A stretch of 64,000 nucleotides of DNA from IMG/VR virus record IMGVR_UViG_2974637922_000001, positions 64,001 to 128,000 of that record. One strand, written 5' to 3'. The notes beneath the pieces are model-generated. The model searched no databases. It was given only the letters and a program-made list of their open reading frames with translations, and had not been told where the DNA came from. Source of the DNA: a virus (Duplodnaviria > Caudoviricetes). A program made the translations under genes and the position numbers. Numbering within the stretch: position 1 is the first letter of the stretch; each line of letters starts with the position of its first letter. Positions 59,139 to 62,210 of this stretch are shown piece by piece.

Positions 59139-59669
59139 ATGAGTGAGTATATCAAACACTATAGGGGAGTTCTAACAGATACATCTTGTGATGTTCTGAT
59201 AGATGCTCTTCTGAGTGTAGATAGAAAGCATATAAAGGAACATCGAACAGATCGTAAAACATTTGATCAGGTGTTTCTTAATGCTGCAAATATGGATCTG
59301 ATTCCAGGTATTACTAAAATAGTTGGTAATGTAATCAAACAATACAAGATGGATGTTCCATACTTCACACAGTTCTTTCCCAAGGGACTGGAGATTGAAA
59401 CACCAAAGGTCAAAGGTTACAGTCCTGGAGGACAATTCAAACCACATTGTGATGTGGATGCTACTTCCTGTCCAAGGTATCTTGCCTTTCTATTTTATCT
59501 TAATGATAATTTTACAGGTGGACAAACAGAGTTCTTACCTGGTATAATGGTGGAACCTGTGAAAGGTTCAGTGGTGGTATTTCCACCCAACTGGCAACAC
59601 CCTCATTGTGGATTACCAGTGGAGACTGGTAACAAATATATTATGTCAACTTATCTAAGATACGTTTAA
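59139..59669 (+). CDS. 2OG-Fe(II) oxygenase
   Basis: 'PHCD', 'LAFLFYLND..TGG.T', 'FPP.W..PH.G', 'KY'. Confidence 0.85.
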   Translation: MSEYIKHYRGVLTDTSCDVLIDALLSVDRKHIKEHRTDRKTFDQVFLNAANMDLIPGITKIVGNVIKQYKMDVPYFTQFFPKGLEIETPKVKGYSPGGQFKPHCDVDATSCPRYLAFLFYLNDNFTGGQTEFLPGIMVEPVKGSVVVFPPNWQHPHCGLPVETGNKYIMSTYLRYV

Positions 59670-61036
59670 TGGATCGAATTGAGAATTTAATACTAAGATC
59701 ACTCTCACATAGTGAAGGGTTTTCTAGGAAGGTTATCCCCTTCATCAAACCAGATTATTTCCATGATAATGCTGAGAAAGTTCTCTTCGAAGAAATCGCA
59801 CAATACATTGTCAAGTACAACTCTAATGTTACTGTACAGGCTCTAAGTATTGAGGTGGAACAGAGAACCGATTTATCTGATAGTGATGTCAAAACTATCA
59901 GAACTATCCTAGATGACTTTGATGCAGTCACAGGAACTGATGAGTGGATGATTGATTCCACTGAGAAGTGGTGTAAGAAACAGGCAATTTACAACGCTCT
60001 TATGGAGTCTGTGAGTATTGCCAATGGAGATAGTCAGACTAAGGCTGAAGACGCTATCCCCAGTATCCTCTCAGAGGCTCTGGGTGTATCCTTTGATAGT
60101 AATGTAGGTCACGACTACATTGAGAACGCAGAGGATAGGTGGGAGTACTACCACCAGAAGGAAGATAAGATTCCCTTCGATATTGATCTACTCAATGCGA
60201 TTACTAAAGGTGGATTACCTAACAAGACACTGAATATCGCACTCGCTGGTACTGGTGTTGGTAAGTCACTCTTTATGTGTCACGTAGCAGCCTCTAGTTT
60301 AATGCAGGGTAAGAATGTTCTATACATCACTGCTGAGATGGCAGAAGAGAAGATCGCAGAACGTATTGACTCCAACCTACTCAACGTTAATATTAAGGAT
60401 CTATCTGAACTACCCAAACAGATGTTTGAGAAGAAGATAGATGCGGTATCTAAGAAGACACAAGGTTCCTTGGTTATCAAGGAGTATCCTACAGCTTCTG
60501 CACACTCAGGACACTTCAAGTCTCTACTTAACGAACTAAAACTCAAGAAGAACTTCACACCAGATATTATCTTTATTGATTATCTCAATATCTGTGCTTC
60601 CTCTCGTATCAGAGCTGGTGCTAACGCTAACTCCTACACACTAGTGAAGAGTATCGCAGAAGAGATTCGTGGTCTAGCGGTAGAGTTCAACGTTCCTATC
60701 GTGAGTGCTACTCAGACGACTCGTAGTGGGTATGGAAACAGTGACGTGGGTATCACAGATACCTCTGAGTCTTTCGGTCTTCCTGCAACCGCTGACCTTA
60801 TGATCGCTCTTATCTCCACAGAGGAGCTAGAAGGTCTAGGTCAAATTATGGTTAAACAACTCAAGAACAGATACAATGATCCCACCATCCACAAGCGTTT
60901 TGTTGTCGGTATTGACAGAGCTAAGATGCGGTTGTATGACTGTGAGCAGGCGGCTCAGGATGATATTCTGGATAGTGGTGACGACTCTGAGGAAAAGACT
61001 TCCCTCAAGGATAAGTTGGCAAAACTGAGTTTCTAG
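59669..61036 (+). CDS. g41: Replicative helicase gp41 (DnaB-like)
   Basis: 'AGTGVGKS', 'EMAEE', 'IDYLNI', 'ATQTTRSG', 'KQLKNRY'. Confidence 0.96.
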   Translation: MDRIENLILRSLSHSEGFSRKVIPFIKPDYFHDNAEKVLFEEIAQYIVKYNSNVTVQALSIEVEQRTDLSDSDVKTIRTILDDFDAVTGTDEWMIDSTEKWCKKQAIYNALMESVSIANGDSQTKAEDAIPSILSEALGVSFDSNVGHDYIENAEDRWEYYHQKEDKIPFDIDLLNAITKGGLPNKTLNIALAGTGVGKSLFMCHVAASSLMQGKNVLYITAEMAEEKIAERIDSNLLNVNIKDLSELPKQMFEKKIDAVSKKTQGSLVIKEYPTASAHSGHFKSLLNELKLKKNFTPDIIFIDYLNICASSRIRAGANANSYTLVKSIAEEIRGLAVEFNVPIVSATQTTRSGYGNSDVGITDTSESFGLPATADLMIALISTEELEGLGQIMVKQLKNRYNDPTIHKRFVVGIDRAKMRLYDCEQAAQDDILDSGDDSEEKTSLKDKLAKLSF

Positions 61037-61044
61037 TGTATAAT
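61016..61044 (+). promoter_or_regulatory. Sigma70 promoter TTGGCA-N17-TATAAT
   Basis: -35 at 61016-21, -10 at 61039-44, overlapping the end of g41. Confidence 0.65.
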
Positions 61045-61050
61045 GGTTAT

Positions 61051-61122
61051 GTTGGGAAGAAACCCCAACCTCCTTTGTGATGTGGTGTTTGTTGGGGAAG
61101 GGGTGGTTCCCTTCCCTTTTTT
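61051..61122 (+). ncRNA. Candidate ~70-nt small RNA or attenuator leader upstream of mazG
   Basis: 5' hairpin GTTGGG/CCCAAC, ACCTCCTTT linker, terminator GGGAAGGG/CCCTTCCC+T6; alternative CCCCAAC/GTTGGGG pairing. Confidence 0.5.
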
Positions 61123-61146
61123 ATTGTTTATTGGTATTCAATTATT

Positions 61147-61551
61147 ATGAGCGTAGATTTTTCTAAGTACGGTGAGTTTGTAGACACAGTAACTAGTGCC
61201 CCCTCCAAGGGAACTGGTGAGATGATCGCAGTACTCAAGGACCTTAAGCTTCGTGGAGCACAACCCGAAAGACTTCTTACTGGTGCAGTTGGTATCTGTG
61301 CTGAGGGTGGTGAGTTCATGGAAGTGGTCAAGAAGATGGTATTCCAAGGCAAACCCTATGACCAAGATAATGTCTGGCATATGAAGCGTGAGTTGGGTGA
61401 TATTATGTTCTATGTACAAACAGCGTGTATCGCTCTAGGTACCTCTGTTGATGAGATTGTAGAGATGAATGTGGAGAAACTAGAAGCACGATATCCAGGT
61501 GGTCAATTTAGTGTAGAGAATAGTGAGAACCGAGTAGAGGGTGACTTATGA
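61147..61551 (+). CDS. mazG: MazG-like nucleotide pyrophosphohydrolase
   Basis: 'AEGGEFMEVVKK', 'ELGD..FY', 'N..KL..RYP'. Confidence 0.92.
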   Translation: MSVDFSKYGEFVDTVTSAPSKGTGEMIAVLKDLKLRGAQPERLLTGAVGICAEGGEFMEVVKKMVFQGKPYDQDNVWHMKRELGDIMFYVQTACIALGTSVDEIVEMNVEKLEARYPGGQFSVENSENRVEGDL

Positions 61552-61670
61552 TTGCATCTGATACACATAATGAACCCACTGAGTTAATCAGACAAATCAA
61601 TGATTCAGTGGAACGTGCTAGAATGAAGGAACAAGACGATCAACTAAACTACGACACAGGAGGTAAATGA
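61548..61670 (+). CDS. 40-aa hypothetical protein (not in the ORF track)
   Basis: MIASDTHNEPTELIRQINDSVERARMKEQDDQLNYDTGGK; ATGA overlaps at both ends. Confidence 0.5.
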   Translation: MIASDTHNEPTELIRQINDSVERARMKEQDDQLNYDTGGK

Positions 61671-61975
61671 TGGACAAGCCAATTACAGTTGAGGAATATC
61701 AAGAGGCTGGTAAAGAGTTCTGGCCTAAGTATTGGTATGTTGCTAAAGAACTTGGTGAAAACGCTAAGACTGAAGATGTCCTACACGTTATGGAGTCTCT
61801 TGCTGGTGTTGTTATGGTCAACAGAAGCAATGAAAAGAAAGAATATTCTGGTATGATTGGGTTCAATAAGTCCCTAGAAGACAACCCATTGGCTTCTGCT
61901 ACATACCACGGACAACCAGTTACAGAGTGTCCCCCAGGGACTATCTACTGTAACGGTGAATGTTGTGACCTATGA
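61667..61975 (+). CDS. Hypothetical protein with a Cys-rich C-terminal tail
   Basis: 'KY.YVA.ELGE.AK.ED.L.VMESL' core plus 'CPPG..YCNGECCDL'; GGAGG SD. Confidence 0.65.
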   Translation: MMDKPITVEEYQEAGKEFWPKYWYVAKELGENAKTEDVLHVMESLAGVVMVNRSNEKKEYSGMIGFNKSLEDNPLASATYHGQPVTECPPGTIYCNGECCDL

Positions 61976-61983
61976 GGTAAATT

Positions 61984-62118
61984 ATGGCTAAAAGAACTTA
62001 TACTACAAAGTCTGGAGATGTGTTTGAGTGGGAAGAGACCCCTGAAACTACTGCAGCACTCAAAGCTCTCCACAGACAAGTGGCAGAGACAAAACAGAAG
62101 CTTGACAGCACCAAGTGA
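61984..62118 (+). CDS. 44-aa hypothetical protein (not in the ORF track)
   Basis: MAKRTYTTKSGDVFEWEETPETTAALKALHRQVAETKQKLDSTK; GAGGT SD. Confidence 0.55.
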   Translation: MAKRTYTTKSGDVFEWEETPETTAALKALHRQVAETKQKLDSTK

Positions 62119-62130
62119 GTCTGTTATAAT
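62102..62130 (+). promoter_or_regulatory. Consensus sigma70 promoter TTGACA-N17-TATAAT (with extended TG) for the RNA cluster
   Basis: TTGACA 62102-07, TATAAT 62125-30. Confidence 0.85.
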
Positions 62131-62135
62131 ATGAG

Positions 62136-62210
62136 AGTTGGGAAGGAAACCCCCCAACTGCGGTGACCCCCTTGGTAGTTCAGGGTTAGCGGCGATAGGA
62201 ACTACCACAA
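62136..62210 (+). ncRNA. Candidate structured RNA: 5' hairpin plus H-type pseudoknot
   Basis: AGTTGGG/CCCAACT; TGACCC (62164-69)/GGGTTA (62183-88) crossing TGGTAGTTC (62173-81)/GAACTACCA (62199-207). Confidence 0.55.

Follow-up and report, generated by a model that had tools for sequence, protein, structure and literature searches.

Small RNAs (sRNAs) embedded in a 3' untranslated region (UTR) and transcribed from their own promoter inside the upstream gene are exemplified by DapZ and MicL, and some terminated leaders, such as the SreA/SreB riboswitch RNAs and rnTrpL, act also in trans; to our knowledge, small RNAs encoded by lytic phages are few. The known non-coding RNAs of marine cyanophages are the antisense RNA CfrI and the Rfam motifs manA, wcaG, PhotoRC-II and glnA, which have no assigned role (PMC2984593, PMC9964418). 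The cyanobacterial Yfr1 is defined by two stem-loops, of which the 3' one is the terminator, separated by 16-20 unpaired nt (12-25 nt in the published descriptor; PMC2190773, Voss et al. 2007), and targets of Yfr1 have been described (PMC2796815). Here we report that the junction between the DNA primase-helicase gene gp41 and mazG, in a 64,000-nt stretch of phage DNA (positions 64,001 to 128,000 of IMG/VR record IMGVR_UViG_2974637922_000001, referred to as the window), houses a unit predicted to produce an RNA of ~72 nt, which we regard as a credible candidate for a new phage small RNA and not as a proven mazG switch. The source phage is a T4-like cyanomyovirus with 94-98% identity to isolates of Synechococcus phage ACG-2014f (Kyanoviridae, Atlauavirus), a type of phage known from viral-tagging assemblies.

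Our preferred interpretation, to which we give about an even chance on the basis of the sequence comparisons below, is that the unit constitutes a lineage-specific, Yfr1-like sRNA gene of the phage, and that read-through of its terminator supplies mazG. The unit occupies the 110-nt spacer between the two genes, and the -35 box and promoter spacer lie within the last gp41 codons. Its parts, followed by the two flanking genes, are:

61051..61123, plus strand: predicted ~72-nt RNA (whole unit), delimited by promoter geometry, a conservation boundary at +1 and the terminator
61016..61044, plus strand: sigma-70-type promoter TTGGCA-17-TATAAT with 11/12 matches (-35 box at 61016-21, -10 box at 61039-44)
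61045..61050, plus strand: discriminator (-10 box to +1), the most variable part of the gp41-mazG spacer
61051..61069, plus strand: 5'-terminal hairpin GUUGGG/CCCAAC of 6-7 bp in the predicted fold, beginning at the predicted +1
61051-59, plus strand: segment 1, GTTGGGAAG
61063-69, plus strand: segment 2, CCCCAAC
61070..61093, plus strand: linker of 24 nt, mostly unpaired in the ensemble, with the C/U-rich CUCCUUU followed by a G/U-rich tract; candidate seed
61091-102, plus strand: segment 3, GTTGGGGAAGGG
61094..61123, plus strand: intrinsic terminator with a 10-bp G+C-rich stem, a 4-nt loop and U6 (-17.6 kcal/mol)
61109-22, plus strand: segment 4 with T6, CCCTTCCC
59669..61036, plus strand: gp41, DNA primase-helicase gene (open reading frame (ORF) list; annotated as gp41 in ACG-2014f isolates)
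61147..61551, plus strand: mazG (ORF list and ACG-2014f annotation)

An earlier reading of the DNA from its letters alone (the sequence-only reading) had described the promoter and the four segments, and every coordinate was found to be correct when the sequence was read again. It had also proposed that the pairings 1:2 and 3:4 give a terminated RNA of ~70 nt; the minimum-free-energy fold of 61051-61123 consists of exactly these two helices (-25.7 kcal/mol in total, with -7.3 for hairpin 1), in good agreement with the ~72 nt predicted here. The terminator stem (61094-61117) has six G-C pairs with the U6 directly after it, as in intrinsic (Rho-independent) terminators. In this architecture the unit resembles Yfr1, as that reading had noted: a 5' stem-loop of 6-10 bp, an unpaired stretch with an invariant C/U-rich core (CUCCU in both) and a G+C-rich terminator with a U-tail are shared, the 24-nt linker falls within the published descriptor and the lengths are comparable (54-69 nt for Yfr1, ~72 nt for the phage RNA). 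The defining motif of Yfr1, however, is missing. Where Yfr1 carries the ultraconserved undecanucleotide ACUCCUCACAC the phage RNA reads CCUCCUUUGUG, and the linker, CUCCUUUGUGAUGUGG..., matches the motif in the CUCCU core alone. Unlike Yfr1, moreover, the RNA is phage-encoded and situated in a gene junction, and no cyanobacterial sRNA family was matched in Rfam at E-values up to 10.

With its promoter in the last codons of the upstream gene, and a terminator common to the sRNA and the mRNA of that gene, the unit also resembles DapZ and MicL, but it differs from these in that marine picocyanobacteria offer no Hfq context and in that the downstream gene relies on read-through. No Rfam family, cis-regulatory families included, corresponds to the candidate RNA. 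The permissive search (E up to 10) returned DapZ, AniS and IsrM, all below threshold (e.g. DapZ 25.9 bits against a gathering threshold of 56, AniS 24.8 against 50), which we set aside as terminator-shaped noise; the weak DapZ match reflects a DapZ-like shape. As a short terminated RNA upstream of a gene, the product could be both leader and trans-acting RNA, as are SreA/SreB and rnTrpL, although, unlike these, it has no ligand-binding or leader-peptide part.

The promoter ranks among the three best in a 10-kb scan, and both of its hexamers and its spacer are unchanged in every copy retrieved; the -10 hexamer lies outside gp41, yet it is invariant. In contrast, the discriminator varies at four of its six positions among seven haplotypes (GGTTAT, AGTTGT, AGTTAT, GGTTGT and ATATGT), and conservation picks up again exactly at 61051, i.e. 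at +1 by promoter geometry. Across the whole 197-kb genome, strong promoters (at least 11/12 matches) number 14 on the coding strand and two on the opposite strand, a bias from which we conclude that the majority of the 14 are real. The terminator stands 49 nt downstream of the promoter, and this is the only such unit in the genome that holds no ORF. Since transcripts from this promoter meet the same terminator as those arriving from upstream, the promoter is best explained if the short RNA is its product. Early genes of cyanomyoviruses are thought to rely on the unmodified sigma-70 polymerase of the host (PMC2984593). At least eight early promoters of the form TTGGCA-17-TATA(A/C)T, which precede a conserved C/A-rich 5' UTR (ATACCAAACAA...) and an ATG, make up a family in the early region of the genome (C1:30117-46013, 167113 and 196774, all outside the window).

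Conservation was assessed in 17 copies, representing seven haplotypes, from the window, nine GenBank isolates, IMG/VR contigs and JGI or ENA metagenome contigs, and diversity was counted in an alignment of ten sequences over 60400-61800. Variable columns make up 7/112 of the gp41-mazG spacer compared with 118/349 of the third-codon positions of gp41 and mazG (Fisher p = 7.7e-10). The stretch 61060-61098, which includes the linker, is invariant in the ten aligned sequences and in the seven haplotypes. Variation within the RNA is confined to an indel in the loop of hairpin 1, A61057G, which lengthens the stem of hairpin 1 to 7 bp, A61099G (A-U to G-U) and U61117C (G-U to G-C), the last two in the terminator. 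Every stem change thus keeps or extends pairing, two of them via G-U, which counts only in RNA. Together with the anatomy this pattern supports a discrete RNA that would extend from 61051 to the terminator. It further supports sequence constraint on the unpaired linker, as would be expected of an sRNA, and the invariance of an unpaired linker suggests an interaction that depends on sequence.

The same polymorphisms bear on whether the unit might instead encode a small protein, either of 35 amino acids (61043-61150) or of 15 amino acids from a GTG at 61103, a reading to which we assign next to no probability. In favour of the longer ORF, no stop interrupts it in the window, the C-terminal half of its product is hydrophobic and it shares an ATGA with the mazG start. 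The C16/C9 type of haplotype, however, has GTG in place of its ATG, and an insertion of 1 nt brings a stop into frame; in the L082 type the shorter ORF is disrupted by a 1-nt insertion 3' of the terminator stem. The start codons also lie upstream of the predicted +1. Because the loop indel and the insertion after the terminator stem disrupt both ORFs, the unit is non-coding and the small-ORF reading was rejected.

The sequence-only reading had further pointed to an anti-Shine-Dalgarno (anti-SD) sequence of nine nt and to a possible trans-acting sRNA that blocks SD-led host mRNAs. The motif, ACCTCCTTT, is indeed present at 61068-76; A61068 and C61069 are paired in hairpin 1, however, and the 16S genes of three marine Synechococcus (L272-L274) end in ...CACCTCCTAAC (...GGATCACCTCCTAAC). 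As a separate observation, many other cyanobacteria have CCUCCUUU where the anti-SD tail of these three genes reads ...GGATCACCTCCTAACAGG. The window shows no enrichment of anti-SD-like 10-mers (8 vs 5.4 expected), and GGAG or GAGG precedes 48 of the 221 phage ORFs (22%, against a background of 8%). Against the 221 translation-start regions of the phage the linker gave a mean pairing energy of -12.65 kcal/mol, compared with -11.02 +/- 0.66 for shuffled linkers, and it surpassed all 30 shuffles, a point in favour of the sRNA; this is a general preference expected of an anti-SD-like motif and identifies no specific target. An 18-nt match to the linker inside a pstS-like gene of one host-family genome (G115, L264:1500-1520) is in the sense orientation and was judged to be due to chance. 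The anatomy and the constrained, unpaired linker fit a trans-acting sRNA, as had been suggested; the target scans gave nothing specific.

Several observations weigh against a dedicated sRNA gene. The complementarity to the anti-SD of the likely host is ACCUCCU, i.e. seven nt instead of nine, and two of the nine bases cited are paired. No complement of at least 12 nt was detected anywhere in the phage, and a search of 121 host-family genomes for 20-mer complements with at most three mismatches gave 18 matches, against 7 for the reversed control, none of them recurrent. The z-score of the fold of 61051-61123 relative to shuffled sequences is just -1.47. Double compensatory changes were looked for in the relatives and none was found, the sequences, which are 94-98% alike, being too close for this. 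The reliance of mazG on read-through may leave room for a purely cis-acting role. Finally, the low-diversity block spans 166 nt (61013-61178) and extends slightly into gp41 and mazG, and recent spread of a cassette, rather than constraint, could be partly behind the low diversity. Taken further, the last point would make the unit a neutral insertion that spread recently, with its low diversity due to a sweep or to gene conversion in the ACG-2014f population. Confinement to one species-level cluster of phages and the haplotype patterns of the spacer, which are unlike those of the flanks and point to recombination, are in keeping with this; yet the variation is non-random, clustering in the discriminator and the loop, all stem changes keep pairing and the promoter hexamers are invariant, and we consider a neutral insertion quite improbable.

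For the sRNA gene that we favour, the following course of events is proposed. Host RNA polymerase would initiate at ~61051 from the early-type sigma-70 promoter, and the first 19 nt would fold into the 5'-terminal hairpin, which may protect the RNA from 5'-end-dependent RNases. Stem-loops at the 5' terminus are known to affect decay of the RNase E or J type, and it is on this ground that a protective role is suggested. The 24-nt stretch, CUCCUUU and then the G/U-rich tract, would stay unpaired, and the strong intrinsic terminator would stop most transcripts at ~61122 to yield the ~72-nt RNA. We infer that the RNA is expressed and that its unpaired stretch acts in trans, either by base-pairing with SD-like, purine-rich sequences of mRNAs from the host or the phage or by binding a protein. 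The gp41 message would end at the same terminator, and polymerases that read through it would supply mazG and the three small genes behind it. A more specific version, which we regard as possible but rather unlikely, is that CUCCUUU and the G/U-rich tract act as a Yfr1-style seed on SD-like sites and reprogram translation in infection, while the terminator rations mazG; the targets would be those host mRNAs that are SD-led, which are a minority, or early messages of the phage itself, and the RNA would be a counterpart of the RegA/RegB proteins of T4.

The mazG ATG lies 24 A/T-rich nt 3' of the U-tract, and this interval contains neither a promoter nor an SD. Lacking both behind the terminator, mazG is predicted to depend on read-through, and thus the unit would also ration mazG. 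This dependence is one argument for a cis-acting attenuator, in which a trans factor (protein, RNA or ribosome) on hairpin 1 or the linker would tune read-through, either because the freed CCCCAAC pairs with GUUGGGG or because CUCCUUU pairs with the purine-rich 5' arm of the terminator. The two alternative pairings are real. Segments 2 and 3 are complementary over 7 bp, as stated by the sequence-only reading, which follows from the near-identity of segments 1 and 3 as direct repeats, and the 2:3 structure lies only 3.8 kcal/mol above the minimum-free-energy fold; CUCCUUU and GGAAGGG pair in the nascent RNA when this extends to 61108. In S-PM2, moreover, mazG is co-regulated with the gp43-gp41 cluster under low phosphate (PMC10976474), and a factor-binding linker would likewise be conserved. 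The antiterminator is, however, a minor state: the forced 2:3 fold has -21.9 kcal/mol compared with -25.7 for the minimum, its ensemble probability is 0.005, and hairpin 1:2 is the first to form during transcription. A leader peptide is lacking, as indels disrupt the ORFs, and so are an aptamer-sized domain and a match to a cis-regulatory Rfam family; only ~43 nt precede the terminator. A ribosome at the gp41 stop codon (61034-36) would end ~2-5 nt before the hairpin. The invariant G/U-rich half of the linker takes no part in either alternative pairing, and a 2:3 switch would leave the invariant linker as nothing more than a loop. According to published work (p)ppGpp is not hydrolysed by cyanophage MazG (PMC6850273, PMC10976474), which undercuts the proposed tie to ppGpp. 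Since the antiterminator is minor, no sensor is apparent and half of the invariant linker lies outside the alternative pairings, a dedicated switch controlling mazG, one of the two roles originally put forward, becomes less likely, and we regard it as improbable.

The unit is restricted to one lineage. Among 50,697 phage records it was found by blastn solely in ACG-2014f isolates, and pattern scans of IMG/VR and JGI metagenomes returned just near-identical copies together with chance matches. A covariance model of the RNA (R1) scored 96.7 bits at 61051-61123, its single site in the genome; in eight other cyanomyovirus genomes it gave nothing credible (the top match, 23 bits, lies within a coding region), and no credible homologue was detected among 151 host-family genomes. 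A blastn comparison with five marine Synechococcus genomes gave short chance matches and nothing more, and our literature search found no report of this gp41-mazG RNA. In Syn19, S-MS29 and S-RIM2 the two genes overlap by 8 nt, and in S-SCSM1 an ORF occupies the gap between them. S-CAM7, from the nearest other genus, has a plain terminator, GGGGGC-TCAAT-GCCCCC-T6, directly after the gp41 stop (L284:2850-2885), followed by an inserted ORF of 376 amino acids and then mazG; in view of this insertion the gp41-mazG junction is a recurrent insertion point.

The promoter and 5' hairpin are repeated 1.1 kb downstream of the gp41-mazG unit:

62102..62158, plus strand: paralogous module TTGACA-17-TATAAT, 6 nt, hairpin GUUGGGAAGG...CCCCCCAAC (hairpin copy at 62137-62158), with the identical 6-nt spacing from the -10 box

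Its promoter has a perfect extended -10, and it heads a unit composed of a leader, a tRNA-Arg, a manA RNA (90 bits) and a tRNA-Asn. GTTGGG...CCCAAC placed 6 nt past TATAAT occurs twice in the window (0.05 expected), and these two are the total for the 197-kb genome. In S-SCSM2R (L285:365-403) a strong promoter is followed after 6 nt by a GUUGA-GAGA-UCAAC hairpin and then by the same leader and a tRNA, and in an IMG/VR contig (L092:5396-5426) the module hairpin is P1 of a manA RNA. The stem hence covaries between loci (GUUGGG/CCCAAC vs GUUGA/UCAAC), and the upper stem of the second copy changes with pairing retained. That promoter and hairpin also head other non-coding RNA units speaks for the sRNA reading of the gp41-mazG unit. 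The hairpin is probably an RNA feature that marks, and likely protects, the 5' end of non-coding phage transcripts. As an observation in its own right, a strong promoter, exactly 6 nt and a GUUG...CAAC hairpin form a recurrent 5' end of cyanophage non-coding RNA units.

At the level of DNA the inverted repeat (GTTGGG-N7-CCCAAC) could alternatively be a +1 operator for a repressor of both promoters, or the promoter could prime an R-loop replication origin. The repeat does have the typical position of an operator and is common to two strong promoters with identical spacing, and the transcript is G-rich on the non-template strand. In a palindromic DNA site, however, the variants that pair through G-U would carry mismatches. 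The loop length shifts from 5 to 7 nt, and the GUUGA/UCAAC stem with its GAGA loop in S-SCSM2R represents compensation of a kind typical for RNA. A candidate binding protein did not emerge, and overall a DNA-level element is very improbable.

In combining a strong sigma-70-like early promoter with a G-run/C-run stem-loop, in being repeated and in bordering a region where gene content differs between close relatives, the module resembles the promoter-early stem-loop (PeSL) cassettes of T4-type phages (Arbiol 2010, PMC2839356; Comeau 2014, PMC4122927). PeSLs are numerous and dispersed, and ORFans of hyperplastic regions lie next to them; here there are only two copies in 197 kb, and these do bracket a content-variable segment. 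The stem-loop of the phage unit, unlike that of a PeSL, is downstream of +1 and transcribed, and it is followed by the conserved linker and a second, true terminator. The DNA upstream of the second promoter (61984-62130) differs among close relatives, with homology restarting inside the promoter spacer: the window has an ORF of 44 amino acids, L022 (1978-3630) and L160 have extra ORFs of 327 and 219 amino acids and L162 has other content. This junction recalls the cassette shuffling mediated by PeSLs (PMC2839356, PMC4122927), and we think it likely that promoter and hairpin were copied together into the gp41 terminator region within the ACG-2014f lineage.

A regulatory cassette without a function in trans has also to be weighed, i.e. 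a PeSL-type early promoter-plus-hairpin that landed upstream of a plain gp41 terminator; the promoter would feed mazG through a leaky terminator, the hairpin would stabilise the mazG message and the short RNA would be a by-product. The plain terminator of S-CAM7, the repetition of the module, the variable gene content with its junction in the promoter spacer and the lack of another promoter for mazG all agree with this. It leaves unexplained why the 24-nt linker is invariant, with synonymous sites varying at 25-40%, a promoter on the upstream side of the terminator offers no gain over transcription from further upstream, and there are two copies only and no dispersed family. Moreover, a PeSL carries at its 3' end the SD and the start codon of the gene that follows, both of which are missing at this place here, where linker, terminator and the 24 A/T-rich nt precede the mazG ATG. 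We consider such a cassette doubtful and retain the sRNA gene as the preferred interpretation. If the latter is correct, this compact, constrained RNA gene would make host takeover at the RNA level, or the timing of phage genes, tractable to study in an ecologically dominant virus-host pair; a mere promoter/terminator cassette would be ordinary. The unit belongs to the core replication cluster of a Synechococcus phage population that is abundant. The duplication of promoter and hairpin shows how intragenomic copying in a phage can create a new transcription unit.

The leader of ~50 nt that stands 5' of the tRNA-Arg in the second unit (62159-62207) is itself a conserved RNA element. Over 43-46 nt (window positions 62155-62200) its sequence identity is 100% with S-SCSM2R and 95% with S-SM2, and it is always located directly 5' of a tRNA, which is tRNA-Pro both in S-SCSM2R (L285:404-455) and in S-SM2 (L286:401-452).

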